From an uncultured Rhodospirillaceae bacterium (GTDB lineage: Bacteria > Pseudomonadota > Alphaproteobacteria > Rhodospirillales > UBA2165), in the NCBI GenBank assembly GCA_964574215.1, contig CAZNLR010000003.1, positions 78,746-142,745 of the forward strand: DNA of 64,000 nucleotides, given 5' to 3'. Below the pieces are notes generated by a model. That model saw nothing but the letters and a program-made list of their open reading frames with translations. It did no database searches and had not been told where the DNA came from. Positions 14,625 through 49,002 of this stretch are shown piece after piece; the first letter of the stretch is position 1, and every line of letters starts with the position of its first letter. Made by a program: the position numbers and the translations under genes.

Positions 14625-14626
14625 TG

Positions 14627-15202: not shown

Positions 15203-15210
15203 CTCCCCCC

Positions 15211-15792: not shown

Positions 15793-16064
15793 GTCGCCCT
15801 TTGACTGTTCAGGTTGTTGCGTTTCCTTTATTCAGTTTCATCTTCCGCTTAATCCTCGGGCGTTTTTTAAACGCCACTCATTATTAATAAGGAATTCGGT
15901 ACCAGAATACCAAATTAGCTAATAAAATGCAAATTTCACCCAATTTGCGGACTAAAATGACATTCTATTGTTCGTAATACAAACATTTTAAATATAAAGC
16001 AATTATTGGTTTATACCTAAACTATTATAATTTTGCAAGCGGCCTGTCTAAAAAGCAGGCGGGA

Positions 16065-26008: not shown

Positions 26009-26827
26009 TCAAGCCGCCCGGTGACGCCACCAGAATTTTTCATTGATGGAATAGACCGGCTGGTAGTGGCGGATTTTACGGCTGTCGGCGACGATCTTGA
26101 TCTGGTTGTCGAGGATCAGAATACGGCCTTTTTCATAATAGGCGAGAATGGCGTGACCCACCTTGAGATTTAAATCCTTAACCGCGACGATGCGCAAATT
26201 CTCTGATTTAATGCCGAGATATTTGAGCGCCATATATTTGGCGATGGAATAATCCTCGCAATCGCCAAACCGGGACATGAATTCGCCGGGGGAGGCCCAA
26301 TAGTCCTTTTTTCCCCAGTTTTTGTTGTCTTGGATGTATTTGGACTTATTCATAAATTTGTTGACCGCCTTCACCTGGGTCAAGCGATCTTTGCCCTTGA
26401 GGCTGTCGAGGAACGTCACCCATTTACTGAAGCGTTTTTTGAAGGATGCCATATTGGCCTGTTCTTTGGACATCCGTTCCAGGACCCCGCGCCATTTTTT
26501 AAAGGCTTTAAATTTTGTCGACCGTTTTTCCTTGGTGCCGAAGAGAAGTTCATTCTTATTGTGCCCACCCAATTCCTTGGCGGTCCTGACTGCAGAGGCC
26601 GTCACTGCTTTGCCGCCGCCCCTGGACCGCCGCTTGCTCGAGGACTTGCGGCGGCGTTTTTTGCGGACTTGGATGATATTGGGATTGCCGGTGGTGAGTT
26701 CGGCATTGATGGCGAACATCATGGCGACGGGCCCCGCGGCCACGTCAGGCGAGCCGGTGGCAACCACACCCCCGGCGATGCCCGCACAAAGGGGTAAGAC
26801 CAACAGGCTTTTAGGAATCTTCTTCAA
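26009..26827 (-). CDS. periplasmic transglutaminase-like cysteine protease (BTLCP; LapG family)
   Basis: 272-aa ORF with a TTG start. It has a signal-peptide-like N-terminus and an unusual K/R/S-rich stretch (RKKRRRKSSSKRRSRGGGK). The core is DYWASPGEFMSRFGDCEDYSIAKYMALKYLG...VGHAILAYY...ILILDN...YQPVYSINEKFWW, a Cys-His-Asp arrangement typical of LapG-type proteases. Confidence 0.8.
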   Translation of the reverse strand: MKKIPKSLLVLPLCAGIAGGVVATGSPDVAAGPVAMMFAINAELTTGNPNIIQVRKKRRRKSSSKRRSRGGGKAVTASAVRTAKELGGHNKNELLFGTKEKRSTKFKAFKKWRGVLERMSKEQANMASFKKRFSKWVTFLDSLKGKDRLTQVKAVNKFMNKSKYIQDNKNWGKKDYWASPGEFMSRFGDCEDYSIAKYMALKYLGIKSENLRIVAVKDLNLKVGHAILAYYEKGRILILDNQIKIVADSRKIRHYQPVYSINEKFWWRHRAA

Positions 26828-27054
26828 ATCACCATATTCCGAAATTCAAACTACCGTTTAATGTAGTCGGCGCGCCCAAAGGGCTCAACCGGCTATCACC
26901 ATCTATTGAATAGTAGCACCTATTGGCTCGCGTAGATGTGACAAAAATCACTTAAAATACGACAACGCCACTTCTAAAAACCTCATATTTAAAGTAACTT
27001 AGATCAATACGTTTTGTTCCATATTTTCGATGGAAGCCTGTAGGGGAGAATTCG

Positions 27055-29175
27055 ATGGCTGACGAATCGGCGAAGAACGATAAGGCTGAACAGGAAGCAC
27101 CGGAAGAAACGCCCAAGAGAAAAGTGAATACCATCGTGGCAATCGCCGCCGTTGTCATGCTGGGAATCGTCGGCGCGGGCGTCTATTTCTCATTTCAATT
27201 TGTCGAAAGCGAACGCCTGAGGGCCCTCAACGAATGGCAGATTCGTCTGGGCATCGTCGCCGACAGCCGCGTAGCCGAAGTCAACGAATGGATGGAAATT
27301 AATTTTGATACCATCGCCGAACTGACCGAAAATGCCTCCCTGCAACTCTACATGTCCGAATTGTCGGAAGCCGAGGGAGACTTGGAGAAGGTCGATGACG
27401 CCACGGCCCAGCAAGGCTATTTGAGAAACCTCCTGGTCGCCATGGCGGACCGCAACGGCTTCACGCCGCCGGCGCCGGTCCAGGAAACCAACTCCAATGT
27501 CGAACGCGCCGGTACGGCAGGCATGGCGCTTTTGAGCGCCAACGGCGATCCTATTGTCGTCACGCCGGAAATGCCGCCGCTGTCGGCCAAGCAGCGCACC
27601 GCCATTACCAAGGCCCTCCAGGGAGAGCCGGGGGTGATCGATATGTATAAGGGCGCCACCAACCAGCCCACCATGGGCTTCGCCCTGCCCGTCTATGGCG
27701 TGCAGCAGGAAGCCGGCGCCAAGGGTCTCGGCGTCGCCATCGGTATCAGGGTGATTGAAGAGGATTTGTTTGATCTGCTGAAACAGCCGGGCGACACGTC
27801 GGAATCTGCGGAAACCTACCTGGTCAGAAAGTCGGGCAATGTGGTCGAATATCTGACGCCGTTGAGGGACGGCACCCCGGCGTTAAAACGCACCATGGCC
27901 CTTGAAACCCAGGATCTTGCGGCCGCCTTTGCCTTGGCAACACCGGGCGGATTTGAGATCAAACGCGATTATGCCGGAGAGGAAGTCCTGGTGACATCCC
28001 GCCCCGTTGCCGATCTTCCCTGGGTCCTGGTTCGGAAGATCAGCCGGGCCGAGGCTTTGTCCGCCAACGAGAACCGGTTGCGCACCATCCTGATCGTTTT
28101 CGTGCTGATCATCGTCGGCGTCAGCATTGCCATGATCGCGGTCTGGCGGCACGGCACGTCGCTTCGGGCGGCAGCCGCGGCGGAAAAGTTCCGCGTCGCC
28201 GCAGAACGGTTCGAAAACATCTCGAAGTTCATGCGGGTGATCACCAATAGCCAGCCGACCCATATCGTCGCCGTCGACGGCACCACCACCTATACCTTTT
28301 CCAACGAACCGGCAGCCAAAGCGGCGGGAATCACGCCGGAGGATATGATGGGTAAAACTATGGCCGGGGTGATGGGACCGGTAAAGGCGAAGTATTACGC
28401 CGAGGTGAATAAGGAACTGCTGGCGGAATTCGCCCGGGCCGAAGAACAGGGCATGGAGGATTCCGTCAAAAAGACACGCAAGGCCTATGTGCAGCGCTTT
28501 GAAACCGAAGACGGCGGTATGGAAGTCATCAAATCGGACCACATCCCGCTGCGCGGCGACCGGGATCATCCGCCGGGTATTTTGATGATCATGGACGATA
28601 TTACCGAGTTTTCCATGGAACAGATCAAAAGCGAAAACCGCCTGCGTCAGTTGGTCGGCACCCTGGCCGGGATCGTCGATAAGCGCGATCCCACCACATC
28701 CAGCCGGTCGAACAATATCGGTGAAGTGGCCCGCGCCATCGCCGAAGCCCTGGGCATGGATAAAATCGAGGCGGACACGGCGGAATTCGCCGGCGCCCTT
28801 CGCTATGTGGGATCGATATTGAAAGACAATCATGCTTTGGGCGACAGCGCCGATCTGCTGGAGGACATCGATTTCGAGGGTCCCGTGGTCGACGCCATCC
28901 GCCAATCCGGGGAGAACTTCGATGGCTCGGGTCCGGATGGAATGGAGGGTGACGACATGCTCATGGCGGCCCGGATTGTAACCGTGGCCGATGCGTTCCT
29001 CGCCCTGTGCAATCCCAGCGACGGGTCGTCTGAAATGACATTCGAAGAAGCGGGCAACAAGCTGCTGCTTGAATCGGGCTCCAAGTATGACCGCAAAGCC
29101 GTTACGGCTTTGTTGAATTATCTGGAAAACAGCGGCGGCACCGATAAGTGGGCGGATTTCAACCCCTCCACTTGA
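27055..29175 (+). CDS. inner-membrane sensor: double-Cache-like periplasmic domain, PAS-like domain and a degenerate (catalytically inactive) HD-GYP domain
   Basis: 706-aa ORF with an AGGGGAG RBS. TM1 is IVAIAAVVMLGIVGAGVYFSF, followed by a ~290-aa periplasmic region with Cache-like blocks (PTMGFALPVYG, ETYLVRKSGNVVEYLTPLR, DYAGEEVLVTSRPVADLPWVLV), then TM2 ILIVFVLIIVGVSIAMIAVW. A PAS-like segment follows (HIVAVDG...FSNEPAAKAAGITPEDMMGKT...MDDITEF). The C-terminal ~175 aa align by eye to HD-GYP, with the metal and GYP residues replaced (see findings). Confidence 0.75.
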   Translation: MADESAKNDKAEQEAPEETPKRKVNTIVAIAAVVMLGIVGAGVYFSFQFVESERLRALNEWQIRLGIVADSRVAEVNEWMEINFDTIAELTENASLQLYMSELSEAEGDLEKVDDATAQQGYLRNLLVAMADRNGFTPPAPVQETNSNVERAGTAGMALLSANGDPIVVTPEMPPLSAKQRTAITKALQGEPGVIDMYKGATNQPTMGFALPVYGVQQEAGAKGLGVAIGIRVIEEDLFDLLKQPGDTSESAETYLVRKSGNVVEYLTPLRDGTPALKRTMALETQDLAAAFALATPGGFEIKRDYAGEEVLVTSRPVADLPWVLVRKISRAEALSANENRLRTILIVFVLIIVGVSIAMIAVWRHGTSLRAAAAAEKFRVAAERFENISKFMRVITNSQPTHIVAVDGTTTYTFSNEPAAKAAGITPEDMMGKTMAGVMGPVKAKYYAEVNKELLAEFARAEEQGMEDSVKKTRKAYVQRFETEDGGMEVIKSDHIPLRGDRDHPPGILMIMDDITEFSMEQIKSENRLRQLVGTLAGIVDKRDPTTSSRSNNIGEVARAIAEALGMDKIEADTAEFAGALRYVGSILKDNHALGDSADLLEDIDFEGPVVDAIRQSGENFDGSGPDGMEGDDMLMAARIVTVADAFLALCNPSDGSSEMTFEEAGNKLLLESGSKYDRKAVTALLNYLENSGGTDKWADFNPST

Positions 29176-29316
29176 AAGCAACACGGCGGGCCCGCATCTT
29201 CCCCAAAGGCAATCAAGGCCCGGACTCCGTCTGCAAGAAAGCCATCCAAATCGAAAGAAATCGCTGAAGCGAATACGCTCAGGCAGCAGGGAAAACTGGA
29301 CGAATCGGAAGCTCTC

Positions 29317-30681
29317 TTGAGGGCGCTTATCAAAGACGGCGAAAAGGGCGCCGCCGTGTTCCGTGGGCTGGGTCTGACGTTGCGCAACAAAGGCAAACTG
29401 ACCGAGGCCGCTGCGTGTTTCCGCCGTGGCCTTGCCGCCGATCCCGAGAATTCGAACATTTTTAATCTCCTCGGCAACACGCTCATCAGGATGAATGATC
29501 TGGAGCGCGCCGCCCGGGCGTTTGAACGGTCGATCGATATTCTGCCCCGGCAGTTGCAGCCTTTTATCTCACTCTCGGCCGTTCAGCGCGCAATGAAAAA
29601 ACCGCAGCTGGCGCGGCGGACCCTGAGGGCCGGCGTCAAGCGGACCCCCCTATTAGTCCGCCCGTGCCGGAATGAACCGAAAGCGCGCGTATTGCGCATC
29701 CGGGGCGTACAGAACGCTTACTACACGCTGGGTCAAAGCCGGGACGGCAGTCCGAAGCTAAAGCTGAGAGGGGGTAATTTCTCCAACCGGTATCTTTGGG
29801 GGCAGGACGATTTCACGACCATCAACTATATGGTCCTGAACGACAACTTGCTTAAGGAGCAGGACCTGCCCGGCTTCGACGTAGCGGTCAACACCATCGC
29901 CGATCCCGATGTCGAAAGCGAAACCTTGCAGACGCTGGCCACCTTCGCCCATCAGAACCCGGACATCAAAATCATCAACGACCCGGTACGGGTCCTGGAA
30001 ACCAGCCGGGACCGCAACTATCGGCGCCTCAAGGACCTTCCTGGTTTCACCATGGGTAAAACGGTTCGTGTACCGGCCGATGACGCGAAGGTCGGCAACC
30101 TGATCGCCCTGGTGGCAAAGGAAAGACTGGCGTTTCCCGTGCTGATCAGGCAGACCGGGACCCATACCGGCCGAACTTTCATTAAGACCGACACCAAAGA
30201 AGAATTCGAGGCCGCCGCCGGCGAACTGGCGGGATCGGAAATATACCTGACCCAGTACATCTCATGTCCCTACCGGGACGACTTTTTCCGGAAAATGCGG
30301 GTGTTCTTCATTGATGGGAAGATTTATCCGGTGGTTCATCACATCGACGGTTTCTGGAACGTCCACGGCTCCAACCGTACCAATTTGATGGCGGAAAACG
30401 ACTGGATGATGGACGTTGAAATATCCTACATGGCCGATCCCGAATCCTTCCTGGAGCCGGACATCTATCAGCGGCTCCAAAGTCTTCATCAATTGATCGG
30501 CCTGGATTTCTTTGGTGTGGATTTCAATATCACCGATGATGGGGACATTTTGATCTACGAGATGAACCCGGCCATGCGCCACGCCCCGGACCACGGCCAG
30601 AACTTCCCCTACCTCCTCCCCTACATGGACAGGATTACCGAAGCTTTCAAACAGATGATCATCGACCGGTCACGGGATTAA
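29317..30681 (+). CDS. TPR-repeat / ATP-grasp (RimK-like ligase fold) protein
   Basis: 454-aa ORF from a TTG. N-terminal TPR units (GLGLTLRNKGKLTEAAACFRRGLAADPEN; LLGNTLIRMNDLERAARAFERSIDILP). The C-terminal half has ATP-grasp-like blocks (FPVLIRQTGTHTGRTF, IYLTQYI, RKMRVFFIDGKIYPVVHHI, GLDFFGVDFNITDDGDILIYEMNPAM). The 5' end is doubtful: the frame is open back to the TGA of the upstream gene. Confidence 0.6.
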   Translation: MRALIKDGEKGAAVFRGLGLTLRNKGKLTEAAACFRRGLAADPENSNIFNLLGNTLIRMNDLERAARAFERSIDILPRQLQPFISLSAVQRAMKKPQLARRTLRAGVKRTPLLVRPCRNEPKARVLRIRGVQNAYYTLGQSRDGSPKLKLRGGNFSNRYLWGQDDFTTINYMVLNDNLLKEQDLPGFDVAVNTIADPDVESETLQTLATFAHQNPDIKIINDPVRVLETSRDRNYRRLKDLPGFTMGKTVRVPADDAKVGNLIALVAKERLAFPVLIRQTGTHTGRTFIKTDTKEEFEAAAGELAGSEIYLTQYISCPYRDDFFRKMRVFFIDGKIYPVVHHIDGFWNVHGSNRTNLMAENDWMMDVEISYMADPESFLEPDIYQRLQSLHQLIGLDFFGVDFNITDDGDILIYEMNPAMRHAPDHGQNFPYLLPYMDRITEAFKQMIIDRSRD

Positions 30682-30708
30682 AAAGAACGGGCGCCCTAAA
30701 GCACCCGT
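30680..30708 (-). terminator. rho-independent terminator of the giant adhesin gene
   Basis: Minus-sense RNA: ACGGGUGC (loop UUUAGG) GCGCCCGU followed by UCUUUUU. This is an 8-bp stem with one G-U pair, beginning 25 nt after the adhesin stop. It overlaps the stop codon of the convergent ATP-grasp ORF. Confidence 0.6.
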
Positions 30709-30732
30709 CCCAATTTCGATGTGGCGATACGA

Positions 30733-33700
30733 TTAACCGCCAGGTGTATCGATGATGATATTGACCGTGCCGTCGCCGGAATCGGTGACCGAGTAGCCAC
30801 TGCCGACGCTGTCGCGTTCTTCTTCATCCATATCCTTGGCGGCGTCTTTCAGCTTAACCTGGTTACCTTGTTCGCCGTCGGCGCCGATTACGGTAACGAC
30901 AACGTCATCACCGTCGGCAGCGATTTCTATGGAGTCGCCGTCATTGAGATTGATGCCGTCGAAGGTCAGCACATCGCCGTTGTCGAAGTCGTAGACCGTG
31001 TCATCGCCGTCACCGAGGCTGAAGATGAACTCATCGTCGCCGGAACCGCCGTAAAGCTGGTCGTTGCCCTCGCCGCCGATGATCACGTCGTCGCCGCTGC
31101 CGCCGTAGATGACGTCGCCGCCTTCGCCGCCGTCGATATAGTCGACACCGGAGCCGCCGAACAATTCATCGGCACCGCCCTGGCCTTCGATGGTATCATC
31201 ACCGGCACCTCCGAAGAGCTCATCGTCAGCGTCCACATCGGCGTCGGAGTCGTCGTCATCATCCGTATCGGTCCCGACCAATTGATCGTCGGTATCCTCG
31301 CCGAGATTGTCATAATCCTCCGGGTCGCCCAGTTCGACATCGATATCCATGGTCTGGGTCGTGCTGGCCGAATCGCCGTTGGCTTCGGTCGAGGTAGAGG
31401 TTACCGTTAATTCGAAATCGGTGGTTCCTTCCGGCACCGTCATGGACAGTCCGTCAAGATCACCCGGTTCGAGTGTCCAGCTGCCGTCTTCATTTGGCGT
31501 ACCGGCCGACAGGGTCGTACCTTCCGGCAAACCGTCAACGGAGACGGAGATCGACAATGTTTCCGAACCGTCCGTATCGGTCAGCGCCGTTGTGATATCC
31601 AGATCATATTCGATACCGACTTCGTTGGGTGTGAAGTCGAGGGATTCACTGGCCACTTCGACCGGATCTGGCGTGACATCCAAGGTGACGTCATCGAAAT
31701 CGATCTTGGTTTTTTCGTCATCCGTGGTTTTCTTGTTGTTGTAGCCGCCGATCATTACGGTGTGATCGCCCGGCGCCAAATCGCCGAGATCGATGGTGAC
31801 TTCCGTCCAGGCGACATCTCCGTCATAGACGCGGTCGACGTAATCATTACCGCCCACATTGACCAACTGACCATCGATGCTGACCAGCACTTCGGCGTAT
31901 TCGTCGTCTTCATATTTGCTGCTCATATCGATCTTGTAGGAGAAGGTCAGTGAACCGGTGCCGTCTTCATTGACCGTGAAGGTCTGCTCGAAGCCACCGG
32001 ACATATCGGTGATGTCGTCGTCGTCCTGACCACCCAATTGGACACGCATATAACCGTCGTCGCTACGGCGGCCGCCGTCTTTGAACTGTCCCTTGGCGTA
32101 ATCGCCTTCATCGGTGCCGCGGAAGGCGTCATCGGTATAGCTGAAGCCGTCATGGGCGCCATCGGTAAATTCGGCGCTGATCAGGGTTTCAGGCGTCGTT
32201 GAATTGGTCACTGAAATATCCAATTGGATATCACTGGAGTCGCCATCGGCCGGGTTGATCGTCAGATCATCCAGTTGATCGCCGGAAAGTGTCCAAGTGC
32301 CGTCGCCATTATCCGTACCGGCGCTTAAGGTCGCGCCATTGGGAACACCGGATACCGTCACTTCATGGGAAGCGTCCGCCGCTTCCAAGGTTTCCTGAGA
32401 AACCGGCACATCGGTCTCGGCAGAGGTGGACGCAACCAAGGTCGCCGATACATCGAGGGTCGGCGCATCAGCGACACCCGCGACTTCCACGGTTGCCGTC
32501 TGGGCGACGCTCTCCTCGCCATCGGTGATGTTGTAGTTCAACGTCACCTCACCGGAGAAGTTCTCATCGGGCGCATAGGAGTAGTTGCCGTTGGCGTCCG
32601 GGCCGGTCAAGGTGCCTTCACCGTTGTTGACCACCAGATCGGTCACGCTCAGCGCATCGCCGTCGCCGTCGGTCGATCCGGCCAGCAACTGCGCTTCGCT
32701 GATGGTCAGCGTGCCGTCTTCGTTCATGGTGAATTCAGGCGAATCGCCTGCCACCGGCGCTTCATTGGAATTTTCAATTGCTGTGGTAACGGTCGTCGTG
32801 GCGGCATCACCGTTGTCTTCCGTAGACGTAACCGAAACGGTCAAATCAAAATCGCCTGAACCATCTGGCGCCGTAACCGTTAAACCGCTCAACTGATCGG
32901 AAGGAATTTCCCAATCCCCGTCAGAATTCAATGCACCTGCGCTGAAGGTTGCGCCATCGGGCATGCCGTCCATTTCAATGGTAACAGTCGACAGGGACTC
33001 AGATCCATCCGTATCCACCAGCGCCGTAGATATTTCAACGGGGAAGGTGACAACGTCTTCGGCATTTTGGCCGGTTTCGAAATCGATGGAATTGATCAGG
33101 AAATCATCTCCATAGCCCGGGGCAGTGAATACGATCTCGTCAAAAGAGGCGCCATTATCCGCCGACAAGGTAACCGCCGGATCGATACCGTCACTGCCGC
33201 CGACGATCGTTCCTTCACCGACTTTCACACCGTCCTCATAGAGTTCATATACAGCGTCTTCACCGGCATGTTTCCATGCGAAGGAAACGTCGGCGGACGA
33301 TACACTGTCATCGAAAGAAACGATTAACTGTTCGGAAATACCGGCGTCACTGTCGTAGCCAAGCTCGGAATCGGCTCCGGAAGCCTCGCCACTAACGCCA
33401 AAGCCCTGAGGATAGCTATCCTGGACACTGATATTGTCAGCCGAAGCATCCGTCAATTCACCGTTTTCATCGATGGCACGGGCCGTCACGGTGAAACCGT
33501 TATCGGTATTGGTGACATTATCCATGCCGATCGAGACATCAACGGCTTCGCCGCCAACCGTCGATTCGACGCCTTCACCGACCGCGACCGTGAGAGTCGG
33601 CGCATCGGCGACGCCGACCACCGTTACTTCGGCGGTTTGGGCGACGCTTTCTTCGCCATCGGTGACGTTATAATTCAAGGTCACCTCACCGGAGAAATTC

Positions 33701-36700
33701 TCATCAGGCTCATAGGTATAGTTGCCGTTGGCATCCGGTCCGCTCAGCGTTCCTTCTCCGTTGTTTACGGAGAGATCGGTAACGCTGAGTTCATCACCGT
33801 CTGCATCGGTCGAGCCGGCCAGTAATTGAGATTCGCTGATCGTGATCGTACCGTCCTCGTTCATGGTGAACTCGGGCGAATCGCCAGCCACCGGCGCCAC
33901 GTTGACGTCGCCTTCGACCGTCACGGTCAACGCCGCCATATCCGTGCCGCCTTCACCGTCGGAAATGGTATAGGTGAATACGTCTTCGCCGCCGTCAGCC
34001 GTTCCAGGTGTTTCATATTCGACGCCCTGGATCTTGAAGTCGCTCTGGCTGCCCGACATTTGCGTCGCCGTGAAGACCACCGTCTGGAACTCGGCGCCGC
34101 CGGTATCGATGCTCAAGGTGCCGACATTGCTGTTGGCGTGATCGACCGTGTCATTATTGATATCGCCGGTGGCAACCAGATTGCCGTCGGCATCGAATGC
34201 CTGCCACTGCCCCATTTCGCCGGTGGAACCTTCGCCGCTGTAGAGCCGTGAGACGGTAACGTCGGCGCTGGATACACTGGTATCGAAGGTCAAAGCCAGG
34301 GCTTCGCTGTCACCGGAGTTGGGATCATATTCAATCTGGGTTGACGCCTGGGCACCGCCCTGGGTGCCTTCAACGCCCAAACCTTCGCTGGTAACCACTA
34401 CACTGTCGTCGGCCAAGGAGGCATCAAAATTACCGTTGCCGTCCGTAAATGACGTACCGAAATCGAAGGCCGAGATCGACACACCTGCATCGGACCAATC
34501 TCCGGCATCCGAACCGTAACCACCGGCGGTTACCGTTTCGCCGCCGACACCATCTTCTTTTTCATAGGTGTAGGAACCGTCGGTGTTAATGGTCAGCGTA
34601 CCGTGATCACCTTCAATGGTCAGGGAGTCAGAACCTGGATCGAAGCTGTGGGTTTCGCCGTTAAACTCGACCTGGGTGACGCTCAGGGCGTCGCCGTCGG
34701 GATCGCTGTCATTGGTGATGACGCTGCCGTTAATGGTGTCGGCTCCGCCGTCGCCGATTAACGCACTGTCGTCGACCGCGACCGGACCGTCGTTAGTGCC
34801 GTTTACCGTCACCGTGGCGACCGCCGTGTCGGTGCCGCCGGCACCGTCAGAAATCGTATAGGTGATCTCGACATTTTCACTGTCGCCGACACCCATCGCG
34901 TTATAGCTGTCGCCCGGCGTGAAGGTGATAGAACCGTCTTGATTAACGGTCACCGTACCGTCCACGTCGTCAGGCAGGGTGGCGCTGGTAACGCTCAGAT
35001 CGTCGCCGTCGACATCCGTATCGTTGTCCAGGACATTCAGGGTAACGGCAGCGTCTTCGGACGTGCTGCCGCTGTCATCGGCGGCAACCGGGCCGTCATT
35101 GACGGCTTCGACAGTTACAGTAAAGTCCTCGGAGACCGTGGCGATATCGCCGTCCGCCTCTTCCGAGGTCGCCGATAAGGTCATGTTCATTTCGCCATTG
35201 AAATCCTCTGGCGGCAGGACACAGACCAGGTGCAATTGCTCGGGAGAGACCGTCCATTCGCCACCACCAAGATTGGTACCCGGGCTCAAGATCGCACCGT
35301 CGGGAACGTTACTTATGGTGACGCTCAAAGTCTCCGAGCCGTCCGTATCGGTGAGTTCCGCATCCAAGTTCAACTGGGTCCACTGATCTTCTGATCCGGT
35401 TTCGTCGCTGACCACGATCACCGGATCGTCGGCAACGCCCGTGACCGACAAAGTCACCGTCGCCTCGGACGTGCCGCCGTGGCCATCGTCAACGGTGAAG
35501 GTAAAGCTGTCGGTGCCGGAGTAATCTTCATCCGACGTATAGGAGTAGCTGCCGTCCGCATTGACGGTGACAGAACCGTGCGCCGGCCCGCCGTTTTCGG
35601 CGACGGAGAATTCCAGTGTGTCGCCGTCCACATCGGAGGCCTGCAACTGACCGGTAAAGGTGGTGTCTTCCAGCAGATCGCTTTCCGATCCGCCGACCGC
35701 CACCGGGCCGTCGTTGGTGCCGGTCACGGTGACCGTTGCGGTCGCCGTATCGGTGCCGCCTTGGCCGTCGGAAATCGTATAGGTGATTTCGACCGTGGCG
35801 TCTTCTCCGACCGCCAGATCGTTGTAGTTATCCTGCGGATCGAAGGTGAGTGAACCGTCGTCGTTGATGACAACCAAACCAGCGCCGTTGGCGATGGTGG
35901 CGCCCGTTACCAGCAACTGGTTGCCGTCGGCATCGGTGTCGTTGGCCAACACGTTGATGGTCACCGCGCTGTCTTCGTCGGTGGTGGCAATATCGTCAAC
36001 CGCCACGGGCGCGTCGTTTTCGGAATCCACCGTCAGGTTTACGGTCGCCGTGTCTGAACCGCCCTGGCCGTCGCTGATGGTGTAGGTGAATTCGGCCGGG
36101 CCGTTGTAATTGGCTTCGGGGGTAAAGGTCACCGTGCCGTCGTCGTTCAGCGTCACTGTACCATGAGAGGCCGATCCGACATCCGTGATCTCCAGCGTGC
36201 CGCCGTCAATGTCGCTGTCGTTGCTCAGCAAGTCGGAGGCATTCAAGGTTAACGCCGCATCTTCATCCGTGGTGAAACTGTCATCGTTCGCTACCGGCCC
36301 GTCATTGGTGCCGGTTACGGTCACCGTGGCGGTGGCCGTATCGGTACCGCCCGCACCATCGCTGATGGTGTAGGTAATCTCCACCTGCTCCGTCGCGCCC
36401 GGCGCCAGATCATCAAAATCCGTGCCCGGATCGAAATTAACGGTGCCGTCGTCGTTGATGGAAACCGAACCCTGACCGTCGCCGATATTGGCGCTCGTCA
36501 CACTCAGGGTATCACCGTCGATATCCGTATCATTGGCCAAAACGTCGATATCAATGGAGACATTTTCCTGCGTCGCCGCGGCATCGTCCGCCGCTACCGG
36601 GCCGTCATTGACGGCTTCAACGGTTACCGTGAAGTCTTCGGATACCGTCGCTGCATCGCCGTCCGCTTCCGTCGAGGTCACCGACAGACTCAGGTCAATT

Positions 36701-39700: not shown

Positions 39701-42700
39701 TCCTCGTCGACACCCGCATTGGTGTGGGCAACATTGTCTTCGTTCAATTGACCGTCGGTCAGGTTGTTGTCGACCGAATGGAACACATCGGCGCCGTCAA
39801 TTTCGTGGTTGCCGACAGGGTTACCAGCCGGGTTGATCTGCTGAATATTGCCGTTCTCGTCGAACGCCAGCGTATGGTCGGCCGGAATGTTGTCGATCCA
39901 GTCATATTCATTGGCGCCGTTTTTGACGATGAAGAAGCCGAAGGTTTCACCCGGCCCCAAATCGTCAATGGTGAATTGGGATTCACCGGGCACCAAATCG
40001 CCGCCGCTGCCCTCTTGCGAGGCGTCGGCCCAGGCGATCTGTGGGTCAGACGGATTGCCGTCGGCGTCAATTTTGTAATAGCCGACCGTATTGTGATAAC
40101 CGGCAACCTCACCTTGGAAGGTGACGGTGACGGATTCGCCGCCTTCCGGCATGGTCAGGTTTTCCTGGCTCACCTGCACCGGATCGAGGTCTTCCATTTC
40201 CTCCGGATCAACCCAGGTCGGCGTGCCTTCGGCCCAATCATGGTCGAAATCGCCGCCTTCACCTTTTTCGAAGGTGTAGGAACCGTCGCTGTTGATGGTC
40301 AATTCACCGAGATCGCTATCGATGGTCAGTGGGTCTCCATTTTCGGGGAAGGTGTAGGTCACGCCTTCGTAGGTAACGTCAACGATGCTCAATGTATCGC
40401 TGTCGATATCGGTATCCTCGCCGCCTGTTTGGCCGGCAGCGGTAATGATGTTGCCGGAAACCGTATCGCCGAGATCATCGCCAACAACATTTTCATCGTC
40501 GACGGCGTCCGGGTCGTCATTGACCGGATGAACCGTAATACCCGACGTCTGCGGCACATTTGCCGTGCCGTCCGACACGTTATAGGCAAGGTCAACTTCG
40601 CCGTTCCAGTCTTGATCCGGGACAAAGGTGTAAACTCCGTCAACCGGGCCGCTCAACGTTCCCTGACCGCCGGTCACTTCAAGCGAGTTCACACTCAGCT
40701 CATCGCCGTCTATATCGGAGGCGCCTTCCAACAACTGGTCTTCGGTGATGGTGATAACCCCGTCTTCGTTCATTTCGAACGCCGGCGAGGATGAGATCAC
40801 GGGCTCGTCGTTTACCGATGCGACATTGACGTTAAAGCTCTGAGAGGCCGTCCCTTCATTACTGTCGACGGTCAATACGGCACCAAAATCACCATACCAG
40901 TTTTCCGGCGGCGTCACGGAAACACCGGCCAACGCGGCTGCCGACGGAACCGAATAGGTGCCGTCTTCGTTCTGTGTCGCGCCATTGACCACGGCGCCTT
41001 CTGGCAGATTCGTAAAGTCGATTTCTATGGCGCTGAGCGTTTCTGAGCCGTCTGCGTCGGTAATATCAAACGAATCCGTGCTAAGGCCGAGATTAATCGT
41101 CGTATCTTCAGCACCGGTTACGTCCTCAACAGAAACGGTCACATCGCCGGTCGGCGTCACGGTCACGGTAAAGGCGTCAGGCGCGCTTTCACCTTCCGTC
41201 GTTACGGCGACGGCGGAACCGGTGAAGTCACCCGCCCAGTCGTCCGGCGGATTGATGGTTACAGAGTCGATATCGGCAGCCGCAACCGTCAACACGTTAC
41301 CCACCAACGTGCCGCCGGAAACTTCGGTGCCCGCCGGAAATTCACTGTCGAAGGTGATAACCACTTCCGTCAGATTTTCGCCCGCATCGGTGATGATGGC
41401 GTTGAGATCCAGCGCCACATCCGCGCCATCCTCGGCGCCGCTCACGTCGCCGGCAACCATGGTCACGTCGCCCTCCGCACCCACATCAAGCGAGACTGTC
41501 GCGGAACTCGTGCCGCCGTCGCCATCGGAGATCGTATAAGTGAACTGGGCCGGGCCGCTGTAGTCGGGATCCGGTGTAAAGACGATTTCGCCATTGACGA
41601 TTTCGACGGAGCCGTTCTGAGCTTCACTGACACCGGTCACGGTCAGTTCACTGTGCGGCGTATCAATGTCCTCATCATTGGCCAGCAATGTCGCCGGATC
41701 GATGGTCAGGGCATTGTCTTCCGTCGTCGTGAATCCGGAGTCCGCATAGGCCACAGGGTCATCATTGGTGCCCTCAATGGTAATCGTCACCGTTTCCTCA
41801 GCGGTACCGTCAACCGATGTCACCGTGAAGGTTTCCGTCATGGTGTCGCCGACACCCATGGCTTGAACCGCAGGATCATCGTTATCCAGCGAAAAGCTCC
41901 AGTTGCCGTCGGCATCCATAGAAAAGGACCCATGCTCACCGTCAGCTTGATCAACCGCATCAAACAGGCTCTCACCCGTGTCGGGATCGCTGACATTTAA
42001 CACACCGCCAACGTCCAGCACACTATCTTCGACGACCGTTCCCGTATCCGCGCCGGAAATTGTTGCACCGTCATTGGTGCCGGTGACCGTGATGGTCGCC
42101 GTCGCGGTGTCTTCACCTCCATGGCCATCCGAAATTGTATAGGTAACCGTGACAACCTCTTCCTGGCCATCCGGCAAATCGTCAAAGTCGGTGCCCGGTT
42201 CGAAGTGGAGAGTACCGTCTTCGTTGATGGTGACCACGCCCTGTCCGGTGGCCGGGTTGCCGCTGGCGTCCACGATGGTGGCGCTCTCGACGTTCAGTTC
42301 ATCACCGTCAACGTCATAGTCGTTGTCGAGAACATCGATATCGATGGCAACGTTTTCAGTTGTTTCGGCTACATCGTTGATCGCCACTGGGATTTCATTG
42401 GTGGGATCGACCTGGATGGTGAAGTCCTTGGAATCTTCGCCTTCGTTACTGGTCGCCGTCAAGGTGGCACCGATGGTGCCGGAATAGTCGCCTGGGATAT
42501 TCAGGCTGAGATCAGCCAATTCGGCTTCCGTGCCGGACCAGACACCGTCCGTCAACGTACCGGTATTGACGCTGGCGCCATCGGGCAGATTGGTAAAGGC
42601 CACTTCGATGGATTCGTAGACTTCGGAACCGTCCGAATCGGTGATGGCCGAGGACAGACCCAAATCGACTGTCAGGTCGTCGCCGTCACCGACACCGCTG

Positions 42701-45700
42701 TCATCATCGGAATCTGAATCCGAGTCGGCATCCGAATCGTCATCGTCATCCGCCGCACCGTGGGATTCGACCACAATAGTGTCATCTTCAATGGCAACGG
42801 TCACATCGCCGGTCGGCGTCACGGTCACGGTAAAGGCGTCAGGCGCGCTTTCACCTTCCGTCGTTACGGCGACGGCGGAACCGGTGAAGTCACCCGCCCA
42901 GTCGTCCGGCGGATTGATGGTTACAGAGTCGATATCGGCAGCCGCAACCGTCAACACGTTACCCACCAACGTGCCGCCGGAAACTTCGGTGCCCGCCGGA
43001 AATTCACTGTCGAAAGTGATGACCACTTCCGTCAAATCTTCGCCGGCATCAGTAATAATGGCGTTCAGATCCAGCGCCACATCCGCGCCATCCTCGGCGC
43101 CGCTCACGTTGCTGGCAACCATGGTCACGTCGCCTTCCGCGCCGACATCAAGAGAGACTGTCGCCGAACTCTCGCCGCCCTGGCCGTCGGAGATCGTATA
43201 AGTGAACTGGGCCGGGCCGCTGTAGTCGGGATCCGGCGTAAAGACGATTTCGCCATTGACGATTTCGACGGAGCCGTTCTGGGCGTCGCTGACACCGGTC
43301 ACGGTCAATTGGTCGTGCGGCGTATCAACGTCCTCATCATTGGCCAACAATATCGCCGGATCAATGGTCAGGGCATTGTCTTCGGTCGTCGTAAAGCCAC
43401 TGTCGTCCTTCGCCACCGGACCGTCATTGGTGCCGGTGACAGTTATCGTAATCGTATTGGATGCAGTTGCCCCTTCGGGATCGGTTACCGTGTAGGTGAA
43501 GGTTTCCGTCGCTGTTTCGCCATCGGCCAAACTATCGTAGGAGCCGGCCGGAGGCGTAAATGTAACATCCGTTCCGTCGACGCTGGCGGACCAACCCGTT
43601 TGTGCGGGATCTGTGGTTACGGTTAATTCGGCGTCCGTATGATCCAAATCGTCGATTTCATCGGCGACATTGACCGTCACCGAGACATCGTCTTCACCCA
43701 TGGTGCCGGAATCGGCTTCGGCGGTCGGTCCGTCGTTGACGGCGATAACTTCTACGTCAACGGTGGCCGTACTGCTTACCGCACCGTCGCCATCGGTCAG
43801 CGTAATGCTGACCGCCCGGTCGCCTTCGACGGGGTCTTCGCTGGTATTTTCAAAAGTGACCTGATTGAGAACTTTTTCGGCGATATCGTCTGTCGCGTTC
43901 TCGTTAAACGTAATCACCAGATCGGCGCCGTCGACGCCGCCTTCGAATGTACCGATCACTTCGCCGCCATAGGACAGCTCATTACCGCTGACGCTAACAC
44001 CGCCCGGACCGAAGGAAAGCTGGTCGTTGACCGTTTCGCCGTCCATGGCAATGGTCATCTGGCCGCCATCTAAATCTTCAGAATCGGGATCAATGATATT
44101 AGCGCTGGGCGCTATTTTGACGGGGTTCTGGCCCTCGGTGAAGGTCTTGTCGCCGCCCGGGATGGTAATCACCGGCGGATCGTTATCGATTTCAGTATAG
44201 GTGACGTTGAAGTTCGCCGTTGCTGTCGAATTGTCGGCATTGTTGCCGTCATCGATCGTGTAGGTGAAGTTCACCTCGCCGGAGAAATCTGGATCGCTCG
44301 GCGTGAACGTCCAATTACCGGCATCATCCGGGCCGGTCAGAACACCTTCGGCACTGTCCGTTTGAACATCCGTTACCGACAGTACATCGGACGCATCTGG
44401 GTCATAGTCGTTGGCCAACAGTTCGGCCGGAGTAATGGTGATGGGTTCGCCCTCGCCAGCCGTGCGGCTGCTGTCTACCGCCACTGGGCCATCATTCGTA
44501 CCCGTGATGGTCACCGTCACCGTATCCGTCGCCGTGCCGTCAACCGACGCATCATCGTTATCCAGCGAATACGTCCAGTTGCCCGTGTCGTCCATCGAGA
44601 ACGTGCCGTGGTCACCCGCTTCGCCGGTCACCTCGTCAAACAGGCTCTCGCCCGTATCGACATCGACAATGTCCAGATTGCCCGTGGCGCTCAGAATACT
44701 GTCCTCGGTCACCGCGCCGGTGTCCTCACCGCTGATGGTCGGCACGTCGTTGGTGCCCGTGATGGTGATCGTCACCGTCTCAGAAGCCGTGCCATCAACG
44801 GAATCAACCGTGAAGGTCTCGGTCATGGTCTCGCCCGCCGGCAGGGCCTGAACCGCCGCATCGTCGTTATCCAGCGAATACGTCCAGTTGCCCGTGTCGT
44901 CCATCGAAAACGTGCCGTGGTCACCCGCTTCGCCGGTCACCTCGTCAAACAGGCTCTCGCCCGTGTCGGGATCGGTTACATCAAGATCGCCACTGACACT
45001 AAGAAGGCTATCTTCGGTAACGCCGCCGACATCCGTGCCAGTAATCGTGGCGCCGTCATTGGTGCCGGTAATGGTGATGGTCGCCGTCTCTACTGACGTG
45101 GCGCCATTGCTGTCGGTTACAGTATAGGTGAAGGTGTCGGTCGCCGTTTCCCCTTCGGGCAGGCTGTTGAAAACGCTCTCACCCGTAACCGCATCCACGT
45201 TCGGCGTGTAAACCACACTGCCGTCGGCGGCCACTTCCACCGTGCCGTTGGAGGGTTGGGTGTAGTCTGACACACTATGGGTGTCGGACGTATCCTCGTC
45301 GGTCACCGTAATGTCGTCGAAAACATTAAAGGATGCCGTGGCGTCGTCTTCCAACATGTCATCTGCGGCAGCGCCCACGACCGTAAAGCCGTCGTTCGTG
45401 CCGCTGATCGTCACTGTCGCCGTCGCCGTATCCGTGCCGCCTTGGCCATCACTGATGGTGTAGGTAATGTCGACCGAAGCACTTTCGCCAACAGCCATGG
45501 CGTTATAGCTGTCGCCGGGCGTAAAGGTGACCGTGCCGTCGGTGTTAACGACAACATCGCCGTCAACGCCTTCAGGCAAGGTTGCGTCCGACACGCTCAG
45601 CGTGCCACCGTCCGGATCGTCATCATTTTCAAGAACGTTGATGGTGACCGCCGTGTCTTCGTCGGTCGACGATATGTCATCAACCGCCACAGGAACGTCA

Positions 45701-47676
45701 TTGGTGGGATCGACGGTCAGGGTCACGGTTGCCGTCGATGTATCGCCGTCGGCGTCGGAAATCGTGTAGGTGAAACTGTCGGTACCGCTAAAGTCGGTAT
45801 CCGGCGTGTATTCGACCTGGCCGTCGACGATCTGCACCGAACCGTTTTCCGGTTGAGTAACGGAATCCAGGCTCAAGGCGCCGTCGCCACCCGTGTCATT
45901 GGCCAAAACGTCAATTCTTGTCGAGGAATCCTCATCGAGAGTAGCCGAGTCTCCAGTGGCTGTCGGCTTCAAATCTTCCGTCACAGGCTCGGGCTCATCA
46001 TCGGGATCGTCTTCGGGATCCGGGTCAGGATCGGGGTCAGGATCGGGGTCAGGATCGGGATCGGGATCAGGATCGGGATCACCCTCGCCGGGCAAACCGC
46101 CAGCCGTAACATTTTCATCGCCATAAACGAAGCCGGGATCATCGGGATCATCGGTGTCCGGACCGCCGTCGCCGGTGCCGTCACCGCCTTCGTCACCGTC
46201 ACCCTCGCCTTCTTCCTCACCGCCGCCGGCGGTTTCGAAACCGTCCAGATCCTCGTCGGTGACTTCGCCGTCTTCTGCCGCCCCTTCGCCGGTCTCCTCA
46301 GCAGTTTCTTCGTTAGATTCTTCCTCTTCCTGACCGGAGGCGGTTTCAAATCCGTCTAAATCTTCGTCGCCGACCTCATCCTCATCAGCTTCATCACCGG
46401 CCTGCTCTTCCGCGAATTCCTCTTCGCCGCCTTCCTCGCCTTCTTCATCACCGGCGTCAGCCTGCTCTTCGGCGAATTCTTCATCTTCGCCATCCTCTTC
46501 CTCTCCGGCGGCGGTTTCAAATTCCTCCAGTTCCTCTTCGGATTGTTCGCCTTCTTCCTCTTCGGCTAATTCCTCTTCTTCTCCCTCTTCTTCGGCGGCC
46601 GCTTCCTCTTCACCGGCTTCCTCTTCAGCGGCTTCTTCGGTCTCCTCTTCTTCCGCTTCGCTTTCCTCCTCACCTTCCTTGTCGGCATCGTCATCACCGA
46701 CACCATAATTATTGCCTGTTCCCACTTCGGTCGGCAGGGACTGCAGGGCGTTGCTGAAGGATTCGGCGATTTCCGCGCGATCGAAGACACGGGGTTCGGT
46801 CGGCGCCTGGTTGGAACTCAGCACGCTGGCGCCCTGATCAGGCAGGTTCAGAATCTGGATACCCGCGCTGTTGGAGATCACGACCTCGCCGACAAACCCG
46901 TCGGATTCCTCCATCAGCACGATCTTCATCGGCTCGCCGCCTTCACCGGTCAGATCGATACCGACCTGCGTACCGCGGATACCGATTGTGGCGACCGGGG
47001 TTTTAAGCACCATGGCGTCAGGATCGACTTTCGCCACCTGGCCGGAAACGAAGGTAAACACGCCCTTGAGGACGGACATGGATATATTGCCTTCCTGGGT
47101 GCCGGGGTCGTAGACCATTTCGTCCAACACCATGCGGCCGCTTTCCGCCATGGAGAATGTCGTTTCATCGGCAAGCACCACACCGACAGAGCCATCGGGG
47201 CTCGATTCCAGAACATCGCCCTGGAACACCGGATCACCGGTTTGTAATTCAACCCGTGTACCGTCGGCGCGGATGGCCGTTACCGTGCCGGAGACGCTTT
47301 CCACCTGACCAATGGGCTGGGCGTCCGCGGCGGGAGCGGACTGAGCATATTGACCATGGGTGGGGGAATTGACCTGGGCCAACCGGACGGCCGTGGTGCC
47401 GGCCAGTTCGCCGCCTTCGGGGGTGTGGAGATCGGGGGGAGGGTCTTGCTGATAATAGTCTTCGATAACGACCTGCTGGCCGTCGGGCGTCGTCAGAACC
47501 AGATCTGGGCCAGAGGGTACAAACTGGGCATCACCGAAATTAATGCCTTCAGGCAGATCGACAGGACCGTCGCCTGCTTCGAGGACAATCGCGTCAGGTG
47601 ATACCTGAGCGTCGCCGCCTAATTCTTCATTAATGGAATCCGAACCGCCACTGCCGGTTAATGTTTCATCAGCCAT
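30733..47676 (-). CDS. giant (~5,650 aa) RTX-type repeat adhesin, presumed type I secretion substrate (LapA/BAP-like)
   Basis: Uninterrupted ORF of 5,662 codons. The start was chosen at the ATG at 47676 (MADETLTG), 6 nt after GGAGGAGG. The parts are: an N-terminal beta domain, an acidic linker, at least ~25 cadherin/VCBS-like modules of ~100 aa joined by [TV]N[DE]xP[VI]A junctions (for example [12 protein letters not shown]), several non-repeat inserts, C-terminal GGxGxDxUx nonapeptides and an acidic tail. Confidence 0.9.
   Translation of the reverse strand: [5647 protein letters not shown]
31033..31221 (-). repeat. RTX nonapeptide (Ca2+-binding) repeat block within the adhesin
   Basis: [65 protein letters not shown], which is about seven GGxGxDxUx units. 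About 100 aa follow that would carry the secretion signal. Confidence 0.85.
31680..32185 (-). other. non-repeat beta-rich domain just upstream of the last module and RTX block (candidate ligand-binding domain)
   Basis: The sequence [23 protein letters not shown]...YMRVQLGG...[28 protein letters not shown]...[30 protein letters not shown] does not match the surrounding module pattern. The composition suggests a jelly-roll or lectin-like fold; this is an inference only. Confidence 0.4.
39615..40105 (-). other. DUF4114-like domain inserted in the adhesin
   Basis: [18 protein letters not shown]...FGFFIVKNG...[26 protein letters not shown]. The terminal G-F-E-D...D-x-D-Y-N-D-x-x-F block is the hallmark I recall for DUF4114. 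Confidence 0.6.
45991..46695 (-). repeat. ~235-aa acidic low-complexity linker (E/D/G/A-rich) of the adhesin
   Basis: ORF residues ~343-577: [42 protein letters not shown]...[14 protein letters not shown]...(DP)10...[10 protein letters not shown]. It contains three FETA[A/S/G]G motifs. Confidence 0.9.
46021..46080 (-). repeat. hexanucleotide tandem repeat (10 units) encoding (Asp-Pro)10
   Basis: The plus strand reads cgggtcaggatcggggtcaggatcggggtcaggatcgggatcgggatcaggatcgggatc, which is 10 x GGRTCN. It translates on the minus strand to [20 protein letters not shown]. Confidence 0.95.
46942..47313 (-). other. N-terminal FecR-like / retention-module-like beta domain of the adhesin
   Basis: [66 protein letters not shown]...[18 protein letters not shown]. 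This shares the pattern hGxVxxxxGxVxxxxxDGxxRxLxxGDxhxxGDxhxT seen at the N-termini of LapA-type adhesins (from memory). Confidence 0.6.
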
Positions 47677-47846
47677 TTTAGGCCTCCTCCGATCGGTCTT
47701 TGCCCAAAAATTGAAACCCACATTCTGTTGGTTTCCGTGGTCATCGCCGAAATTTCTCTATGGAAATTCCCACCCGGCGAATCGCTTTAGACGGACAAAA
47801 GTCATAAATTACCAGTTGTCATGCTATAGAAGAGTGGTAAAGAGTT

Positions 47847-48060: not shown

Positions 48061-49002
48061 ATGCGCGCGCTAGGACTGGCCTGCCTTTTATTAATATCCT
48101 TGATTTCGACCGGTTACGCTGACTACCGAGCCGGCATTGAGGCCAACAAGAAACAGGATTTCATAACCGCCTTCCGGGAATTTAAACTTCTCGCCGATAG
48201 AGGGCAGGCGCCGTCCCAGTACAATATTGCCCTGCTGTACCATCACGGCAGGGGTGTCAAACGCAGTACTTCGAAAGCCTTTAAATGGTATCTTTTGGCG
48301 GCGAAACAAGGCCATGCGGGCGCCCAGAATAATTTGGGATCATTGTACCGAAGGGGGGACGGCACCAAGAGAAACTATGCCCAAGCGGCATATTGGTATG
48401 CGCAGGCGGCCCCCAGGCATCTCATTGCTAAAAATAATTTGGCCTACCTGCACCGTTATGGCTTGGGCGTAAAGAAAAGCAACAAGGAGGCGGCGCGACT
48501 CTATAAGGAAGCGGGCGACGCGGGCCACGCCAAGTCTATTTACGATCTCGGAAGACTTTACGAAAAAGGCAGAGGTGTTAAAAAAGATATCAAGGAGGCC
48601 GTCCGGCTCTATCGGAAAGCCGCCCTTAAAAAATATGCCCGCGCACAGTATTCCCTGGGACTACTTTATCAATCCGGCAAGGGTGTTCGCCAAAGCTTTG
48701 AACAGGCGGCGCGCTGGTACGAATTCGCCAAGGACCAGAGATATTCCTCCGCCTATTACGGGCTCGGTCTTCTGTACCGTGACGGTAAAGGCGTGGATAA
48801 AAACCTGAAAGAAGCAGCCCGGTTGCTCCGTCTGGGCGCCAAGAGAGGTCACCGTATCGCTCCCTACGAACTCGGCCAACTTTACGAAAAAGGTCTGGGG
48901 GTTGAGAAAAACCTCACGGAAGCCCTGAAATGGTATGAATTAGCCGTTAAAAGAGGCTTTGCCAGAGCCCGTGAAAGAGTAACCGCGCTCTCCGGTTCTT
49001 AA
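48061..49002 (+). CDS. Sel1-like repeat (SLR/TPR-family) protein with signal peptide
   Basis: 313-aa ORF after a GGAGGAG RBS. Signal-like N-terminus, then about seven units of the SLR pattern (A..WY.kAA.qGha.Aq.nLG.lY..G.GV.k.). Confidence 0.85.
   Translation: MRALGLACLLLISLISTGYADYRAGIEANKKQDFITAFREFKLLADRGQAPSQYNIALLYHHGRGVKRSTSKAFKWYLLAAKQGHAGAQNNLGSLYRRGDGTKRNYAQAAYWYAQAAPRHLIAKNNLAYLHRYGLGVKKSNKEAARLYKEAGDAGHAKSIYDLGRLYEKGRGVKKDIKEAVRLYRKAALKKYARAQYSLGLLYQSGKGVRQSFEQAARWYEFAKDQRYSSAYYGLGLLYRDGKGVDKNLKEAARLLRLGAKRGHRIAPYELGQLYEKGLGVEKNLTEALKWYELAVKRGFARARERVTALSGS

Follow-up and report, generated by a model that had tools for sequence, protein, structure and literature searches.

What controls the release of a giant surface adhesin when the protease that would cut it loose has no LapD receptor encoded beside it? 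The question is raised by a locus in a 64,000-nucleotide stretch of DNA (hereafter the window) from contig CAZNLR010000003.1 of an uncultured Rhodospirillaceae bacterium. Four genes lie in the region, encoding a secreted cysteine protease, an inner-membrane receptor, a protein with TPR repeats and an ATP-grasp-like part, and a giant RTX adhesin; the protease, receptor and adhesin genes were named in a preliminary description of this DNA and are present where it had placed them. The locus is considered, with a probability of roughly 80%, to be an adhesin retention and release module of the DvhDG type (Lap-like) from an uncultured marine Rhodospirillales-like alphaproteobacterium. What is new here concerns the receptor: by alignment, the sub-clade to which it belongs has lost most of the residues through which DvhD contacts cyclic diguanosine monophosphate (c-di-GMP).

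A Lap-like locus without LapD was reported from Desulfovibrio vulgaris in a 2024 PNAS paper as DvhA/DvhG/DvhD; the system was reconstituted in Pseudomonas fluorescens, c-di-GMP binding was demonstrated, and DvhD was found to control DvhG (PMC10990149). A 2026 Nature Communications paper added structures of DvhD (PDB 9RBZ, 9RC0, and 9RC2), a periplasmic domain identified as a double Cache (dCache) fold with a broken alpha1/alpha1' helix, and calcium-dependent cleavage of [T/A/P]AAG sites by DvhG (PMC13090378). Supplementary Data 1 of that paper contains 78 DvhD homologues, among them those of the marine alphaproteobacteria Pelagibius, Denitrobaculum, Kiloniella, Fodinicurvata, Oceanibacterium, and Sneathiella, and most DvhG orthologues have signal peptides (PMC13090378). 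The preliminary description had taken the present locus for an undescribed wiring of adhesin release; since the DvhD/DvhG/DvhA architecture has been published and alphaproteobacterial homologues are listed with it (PMC10990149; PMC13090378), the wiring here is that of a described system.

A receptor homologous to DvhD

The receptor is a 706-amino-acid inner-membrane protein encoded on the forward strand (27055..29175), with the ribosome-binding site GGGGAGA ahead of its ATG. It consists of a transmembrane (TM) segment at about residues 27-47 (27133..27195), a periplasmic dCache domain with a broken alpha1/alpha1' helix (27196..28080), a second TM segment at about residues 343-363 (28081..28143), a PAS domain (28225..28614), and a degenerate HD-GYP domain (28690..29154). 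This order, including a stalk that follows the PAS domain and an HD-GYP domain devoid of metal ligands, is the same as that of DvhD from Desulfovibrio (Nitratidesulfovibrio) vulgaris Hildenborough. The Pfam matches are to dCache_1 (4.4e-10, under the gathering score), PAS_4/PAS, and HD_5 (2.4e-15). An arrangement of two TM segments, a double-Cache-like part, PAS, and a dead HD-GYP domain had been read from the sequence beforehand, and it is borne out by a TM scan, an AlphaFold2 (AF2) model searched with Foldseek, Pfam, and comparison of motifs.

Both halves of the protein are homologous to DvhD. The AF2 model of residues 48-342 (pLDDT 87) has a double-Cache fold, for which the top Foldseek match is 9RC2, the dCache domain of DvhD (E 2e-12, TM-score 0.77), ahead of every chemoreceptor or kinase dCache structure. 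The helix is broken at residues 92-93 of the model, with alpha1 at 49-91 and alpha1' at 94-105, which is the same break as in DvhD. For the cytoplasmic half, the best PDB match of the single sequence is again DvhD (9RC0/9RBZ, E 1.2e-18), spanning PAS and HD-GYP, and a profile built from 59 family members matches 9RC0 at E 1e-79, with the next HD-GYP protein at 1.6e-40. The receptor is thus nearer to DvhD than to any other HD-GYP or dCache protein with a solved structure.

The receptor belongs to the same fold family as the active HD-GYP phosphodiesterases PmGH (4MCW), PA4781 (4R8Z), and V-cGAP3 (5Z7C), with profile E-values of 1e-22 to 1e-40; however, it differs from them in that all metal-binding motifs are replaced and the lid loop is deleted. 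The motif HD has become RY, HH has become SG, GYP has become G-P, and DxxDAL has become AFLAL; the DvhD equivalents are SQ for HD and MN for HH. The receptor is unrelated to LapD, as Pfam and NCBIfam find no LapD/MoxY periplasmic domain, HAMP, GGDEF, or EAL in it. No LapD candidate was found among the other open reading frames (ORFs) of at least 500 amino acids in the window, which are a caspase-domain protein, RnfC, two hydantoinase subunits, and two frame-overlapping ORFs, one of these two having alcohol-dehydrogenase domains and the other being unscanned.

The helix alpha1' (residues 94-105, ASLQLYMSELSE, 27334..27369, forward strand) is recognized from the model and from conservation in the family. 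N93 and S95, beside and within this helix, are kept in at least 90% of the 59 proteins of the family, whose overall identity goes as low as 29%. The alpha1' helix of DvhD is the surface proposed for docking of DvhG in an AlphaFold 3 model (PMC13090378), and by analogy the window receptor would dock its protease through the same helix.

The family to which the receptor belongs is large: a word-indexed search gave at least 673 matches, the top ones coming from metagenome-assembled genomes of marine Rhodospirillales/Rhodospirillaceae, and at E<=1e-30 the family forms 373 clusters (50% identity). In one further assembly (L024 1..1859, ENA scaffold SUTE22-1_SAMN10231922 scaffold_5679), the TPR/ATP-grasp gene is identical and the receptor is called in two pieces, a partial gene of 158 amino acids running off the locus start and the 547-amino-acid P0001, which is 100% identical to the window receptor over 77% of the query. 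The two-piece call may reflect a frameshift, an assembly error, or strain variation.

Gene linkage, protease, and adhesin

Conservation of the gene order was examined in 21 related loci from species-representative genomes, with receptor identities of 38-75% and up to 10 kb taken on either side of the receptor gene. In 20 of them the protease gene is upstream of the receptor gene and transcribed away from it, and the 21st is a 1.8-kb contig too short to tell; the C-terminus of an RTX adhesin converges downstream in 16. The triad of protease, receptor, and adhesin is likewise found on two further metagenome contigs (P0022 and P0087). The adjacency of protease and sensor, which the preliminary description had proposed as a check, is therefore kept in all 20 informative loci and on both additional contigs, and its placing of the receptor in the position of LapD agrees with this conserved divergent neighbourhood. 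In the window, the two genes are separated by an AT-rich intergenic region of 227 bp (26828..27054), which is presumed to be their shared promoter region.

The protease gene (26009..26827, reverse strand, TTG start) encodes 272 amino acids. The product passes the Pfam threshold for Peptidase_C93/BTLCP (PF06035, 2.8e-15, 56.9 bits against a cutoff of 27), matches NCBIfam LapG (NF045674) at 1.3e-31, and has the crystallized LapG proteins 4FGO and 4U65 as matches at ~1e-23, with GDCED, GH, and LDN aligned. As in DvhG, there is a complete catalytic triad (Cys190, His225, and Asp240) together with a D-C-E calcium motif. The N-terminus is hydrophobic at residues 4-25, is similar in 18 orthologues, and looks like a signal peptide, as in most DvhG orthologues but unlike DvhG of D. 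vulgaris itself. A LapG-family cysteine protease with an export signal had been predicted, and this holds for the family and the triad and, by the likeness of the N-terminus to a signal peptide, probably for the export signal. The protease differs from DvhG in having a polybasic insert at residues 55-75 (26603..26665, RKKRRRKSSSKRRSRGGGK), which is limited to the clade of the window; the polybasic stretch RKKRRRKSSSKRRSR has 12 K/R per 30 residues.

The adhesin gene (30733..47676, reverse strand) encodes 5,647 amino acids from the first ATG, and the frame stays open to a GTG at 47721, for a length of 17 kb. The protein has dozens of Big_9/Cadherin_4/Cadherin_5 repeats together with DUF4114 and He_PIG domains, and RTX nonapeptides (HemolysinCabind) at its C-terminus (31024..31212). 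No serralysin-like or vWF domain matches were found in it, unlike DvhA.

The N-terminal order of DvhA, with a beta retention module, then a helix, then TAAG, is found in this adhesin too. The module (46807..47595, reverse strand) has sequence matches to FecR (3e-6) and, weakly, to a BapA prefix-like domain. The AF2 model of the adhesin N-terminus (pLDDT 83) contains two beta domains, short helices, a long acidic helix, and a disordered stretch with FETAAG; helices are modelled at residues 300-312 and 328-357, with low-confidence coil after the latter. The larger beta domain (~46807..47319) is a beta sandwich resembling FecR/anti-sigma domains by Foldseek (E 2e-6). The smaller, prefix-like domain (~47407..47595) superposes on the "cell surface anchoring domain" 5IX9 (TM-score 0.78, root-mean-square deviation 0.8 Å, 62 residues), which fits a role as an outer-membrane plug. 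The structure 5IX9 is taken here to be the N-terminal anchoring domain of the Marinomonas primoryensis ice-binding adhesin MpIBP. The window adhesin differs from the 5IX9 adhesin in its repeat domains and ligand-binding regions, and ahead of its predicted cleavage site it has two further elements, the large FecR-like sandwich and a long polyacidic linker.

The acidic helix and linker, ending in the predicted site EELEEFETA↓AGEEE, occupy 46504..46695 (reverse strand), with TAAG itself at 46504..46515; the surrounding sequence reads ...EELEEFETAAGEEE... and L..FETAAG is found at the same place in about 35 N-terminal homologues. Because LapG and DvhG are specific for [T/A/P]AAG, the protease is predicted to cut the adhesin at FETA↓AG. 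Two degenerate repeats of the motif, each preceded by DEDLDGF, lie downstream of it in the adhesin: FETASG at 46333..46350 and FETAGG at 46222..46239 (both on the reverse strand). Some adhesin homologues have two to four perfect copies of FETAAG (e.g., P0166 and P0167). The cleavage region (46162..46700, residues ~341-520 in GTG numbering) is 54% D/E with one K/R per 180 amino acids, and the polybasic insert of the protease and the acidic linker of the adhesin may be complementary in charge and may have a role in electrostatic docking. A convergent RTX adhesin of about 5,650 codons with a retention-type N-terminus and TAAG had been noted previously, and the modelled fold, FETAAG, and the RTX repeats agree with that description.

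Additional observations concern the adhesin and its homologues. A (PD)n dipeptide run, GDPDPDPDPDPDPDPDPDPDPEDDPDDEPEP, lies at 46000..46100 (reverse strand, residues ~545-570), between the acidic linker and the first Ig/cadherin-like repeat. P0215, a metagenomic protein of 449 amino acids, has a FecR-like adhesin N-terminal domain and Peptidase_C93 in one gene call and may be a fusion or a miscall. P0127, P0154, P0158, P0165, and others are FecR-domain proteins with TAAG that have just 350-550 amino acids although they come from contigs of 100-400 kb; these may be gene calls cut short inside giant, repetitive genes, or real retention-module proteins of small size.

The absence of type I secretion genes from the window, reported earlier, stands: Pfam finds no ABC, MFP (membrane fusion protein), or TolC gene among the 30 larger ORFs outside the locus that were scanned (out of 82 ORFs of at least 150 amino acids), which leaves none within 26 kb upstream or 16 kb downstream. 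No ORF with both Walker-A and LSGGQ was found in any of the six frames of the window or in any of the 21 loci, in a scan that is crude and blind to MFP or TolC genes in the related loci. Given the absence of ABC ATPase motifs from the 21 loci, the secretion genes appear to be unlinked in this lineage, and they may lie elsewhere in the genome. In contrast, many neighbourhoods of DvhD homologues in Supplementary Data 1 include type I secretion permease/ATPase genes (PMC13090378).

The logic of the locus is also that of LapD/LapG/LapA from P. fluorescens and other Gammaproteobacteria, where a periplasmic BTLCP protease frees a type I-secreted adhesin at a di-alanine after the retention module, and the gene next to that of the protease codes for an inner-membrane receptor whose c-di-GMP-type domain is dead. 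The cleavage site of LapA is ~108 residues from the N-terminus, while that predicted in the window adhesin is at ~390. By comparison with these systems, the giant adhesin would be exported by a type I system encoded elsewhere and plugged in the outer-membrane channel by its N-terminal module, whose beta-domain fold comes from the model and whose role is suggested by the likeness to the anchoring domain. The secreted, calcium-dependent protease would then cut between the alanines of FETA↓AG, downstream of the acidic helix, and so release the adhesin. Gating of the protease would fall to the membrane-bound DvhD homologue, probably by way of alpha1', a dCache helix that hardly varies across the family.

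The nucleotide pocket of the HD-GYP-like domain

If the receptor gates the protease, the next question is which signal sets the gate. DvhD has a canonical c-di-GMP site formed by Y523, L577, K582, Y621, M646, R650, Y652, and E668 and a bridging site formed by K520, P567, and R569, and the mutants R650A, Y652A/R653A, and P567T are impaired in their response to c-di-GMP (PMC13090378). DvhD residues 394-689 were taken from the PDB-match alignment and their numbering was checked. In this alignment neither site is conserved in the window receptor, where most contacts are substituted or deleted. K520 and M646 are changed conservatively, to Arg and Leu; Y523 is Thr, P567 is Asp, R569 is His, R650 is Ser, Y652 is Gly, and R653 is Ser; L577 and K582 are removed with a lid of 19 amino acids; and E668 is possibly retained, depending on the alignment. 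Y621, the tyrosine of GYP, is absent here and likewise in all other alphaproteobacterial family members examined. Alignments to DvhD, to the family, and to active enzymes place the eroded pocket at 28684..29031 (forward strand), where DPTTSSRS stands instead of DP(F/Y)xxxHS, RYVGS instead of (HD/SQ)xGK, DGSG-PDG without the GYP tyrosine, and PSDGS instead of PR(A/S)YR; the 19-amino-acid lid deletion follows residue ~590 (about 28822..28830).

These changes vary across the family. Orthologues with up to 57% identity mostly keep F/Y523, H527, P567, L577, R582, M646, and R-x-Y-R, and family members in the same range mostly keep the motifs DP(F/Y)xxxHS, NLGKIFIP, the LLTKTxxLTxEER lid, and PR(A/S)YR; the Magnetovibrio protein of L009 is an example with an intact motif. 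In the clade of the window (P0002-P0029, at least 60% identity), Y523 and Y652 are missing in all members, and the lid is deleted in the window, P0002, P0003, P0005, P0012, P0014, and P0015. These lid deletions fall on three separate branches of a neighbour-joining tree of the dCache-PAS region only, a crude tree that leaves the number of deletion events uncertain. A single event and an assembly artefact were both considered for the lid deletion and rejected, as it is in frame, found in several independent assemblies, and spread over three branches. The R-x-Y-R motif has eroded independently in other sub-clades as well, in RTGEPP, GARAE, DARRE, and NARRN variants that keep the length of the lid (such family members include P0031-P0055 and P0032/P0045/P0051/P0066); the c-di-GMP signature is therefore patchy across the alphaproteobacterial DvhD-like family.

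The remodelled domain is under purifying selection and is not decaying. The ratio dN/dS in the HD-GYP-like domain is 0.047 for the pair L001-L002, 0.115 for L004-L007, and 0.18 for L003-L004; these closer within-clade pairs were used because synonymous sites are saturated between the window and its relatives, for which dS was >1.2 or undefined and dN/dS was dropped. Clade members share with the window receptor a mean identity of 56% in HD-GYP, 70% in dCache, 78% in PAS, and 84% in the TM2-linker. Such a pattern would be expected if the domain had taken on another function and its altered form were now conserved. As most c-di-GMP contacts and the lid are lost and the domain is still under selection, c-di-GMP at the canonical site has probably ceased to set the switch. 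It seems about an even call that a marine Rhodospirillales sub-clade of DvhD-like receptors, including that of the window, is blind to c-di-GMP, with a remodelled pocket and a recurrently deleted lid. Equally balanced is the proposal that the HD-GYP-like domain is kept as a dimeric switch and that release is gated by a cofactor or ligand of PAS, a dCache ligand, or another nucleotide. The gate would more likely be set by the well-conserved PAS domain, by a periplasmic ligand of dCache, or by a different nucleotide or partner.

The closest competitor to this proposal is a receptor that works fully as DvhD does, in which the HD-GYP-like domain still binds c-di-GMP or 3'3'-cyclic GMP-AMP and high c-di-GMP keeps the protease inactive as in D. 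vulgaris. The architecture and closest homology are those of DvhD, the domain is under purifying selection, the c-di-GMP sites are reported to be conserved across the 78 homologues, including alphaproteobacteria (PMC13090378), and K520R and M646L are conservative, with E668 maybe retained. However, every position at which mutation impairs the response of DvhD is substituted non-conservatively (R650S, Y652G, R653S, and P567D), L577 and K582 are gone with the lid, Y523 is Thr, the HD-GYP part diverges about twice as fast as dCache and PAS within the clade, and deletion of the lid on three branches suggests that it is dispensable there. A fully DvhD-like receptor is thus possible but doubtful. 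Sensing of c-di-GMP through HD-GYP, which the preliminary description had suggested, is established for DvhD but weakened for this receptor, where the contact residues of DvhD are mostly gone. The other mechanism suggested in that description, direct coupling to an external ligand, may apply.

It is unlikely that the receptor is a conventional outside-in sensor, whose dCache domain would detect a small molecule in the periplasm and signal to the cytoplasm with no part in control of the protease. A dCache domain is usually a ligand sensor, all Foldseek matches other than DvhD are ligand-binding domains of chemoreceptors or kinases, and no other large part of the receptor is as well conserved across the family as the periplasmic domain; but there is no catalytic or DNA-binding output domain, the HD-GYP domain is dead, the divergent adjacency to the protease is strict from 38% to 75% identity, the homologue DvhD controls DvhG (PMC10990149), and alpha1', where DvhG is proposed to dock, falls in the most conserved stretch of the periplasmic part. 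Decay of the locus, with the HD-GYP region eroding as the system is lost from the lineage, is very improbable. It would account for HD-GYP being the least conserved domain (against 70-84% identity elsewhere) and carrying a deletion, for type I secretion genes not being found nearby, and for the receptor gene called in two pieces in one other assembly; yet all three large ORFs are intact, including the 17-kb frame, within the eroded clade itself the HD-GYP-like domain has a dN/dS of 0.05-0.18, the deletion is in frame and common to several independent metagenome assemblies, and the catalytic triad and cleavage motif are conserved.

Several results weigh against the interpretation of the locus as a DvhDG-type module whose receptor has lost its response to c-di-GMP. 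The family profile finds no match to the DvhD dCache domain 9RC2 at E<=0.01, and it is only fold comparison that links the two; the sequence profile was dropped as a route to the periplasmic structure and Foldseek was used instead. The protease scores 109.5 bits against the NCBIfam LapG equivalog cutoff of 320, far under it, and by the NCBI criterion is, on these scores, a BTLCP family member and not a LapG equivalog. The adhesin reaches 36.8 bits against retention_LapA (NF033682, cutoff 50), over profile positions 4-68 of 145, and it lacks the DP motif found ahead of [T/A/P]AAG in LapA. The pocket residues were mapped by sequence alignment alone, and c-di-GMP could bind in a remodelled way, given K520R, M646L, and the possible retention of E668. 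Finally, the data are those of a 64-kb window, and a canonical LapD, a second intact DvhD paralogue, or type I secretion genes could lie outside it.

Neighbouring genes and reach of the system

The distance of about 1.5 kb that the preliminary description gave between the receptor and the adhesin is correct, but the gap is not empty: it holds a gene that went unmentioned there (29317..30681, forward strand), and this gene is an addition relative to the DvhDG locus. Its 454-amino-acid product has strong TPR repeats and weak matches to R2K/RimK ATP-grasp domains, and its PDB matches are to the TPR part only. Among the related loci compared, only the six closest have the gene, and the P0022 and P0087 loci lack it; it is taken to be an insertion specific to this lineage and probably does not belong to the core of the system. 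Cyanobacterial homologues are fusions with TauD/TfdA dioxygenases and point to a family of peptide- or protein-modifying enzymes of unknown function. The gene was also considered as a partner tied to erosion of the pocket and rejected, as it is absent from the P0022 locus, where the pocket is eroded, and its homologues occur in unrelated contexts.

Directly upstream of the adhesin start and divergent from it is a gene for a protein with seven Sel1 repeats (48061..49002, forward strand, E 9e-60). In two distant loci (L009 5195..5995 and L017 1512..2405), a homologue of 34-36% identity is encoded close to the protease and receptor genes, and this may be a loosely linked accessory gene. Farther away, RnfC-like (Complex1_51K/RnfC_N/4Fe-4S) and ApbE genes at 13140..17249 (reverse strand) indicate an Rnf/Nqr-type electron-transport cluster unrelated to the adhesin locus. 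Close to the start of the window are a trypsin-like peptidase (27..1133, forward strand) and a 546-amino-acid protein with a C-terminal caspase (Peptidase_C14) domain (4884..6524, forward strand).

The host of this locus is a marine alphaproteobacterium and not a sulfate reducer like D. vulgaris, and the value of the locus is mostly that it brings abundant, uncultured marine alphaproteobacteria within the range of a known system. Because the family is large and tightly linked to the protease and to giant adhesins across the Rhodospirillales, control of the DvhDG type may be one of the chief ways in which marine Alphaproteobacteria attach to surfaces. If the receptor is indeed blind to c-di-GMP, it would be a natural inside-out switch of the Lap type uncoupled from that nucleotide, and the similar erosions in the RTGEPP, GARAE, and DARRE sub-clades would mean that uncoupling has occurred repeatedly. 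Pockets that are eroded but constrained are natural variants for asking what the HD-GYP switch needs, and whether adhesin release of the Lap type can be rewired to signals other than c-di-GMP.

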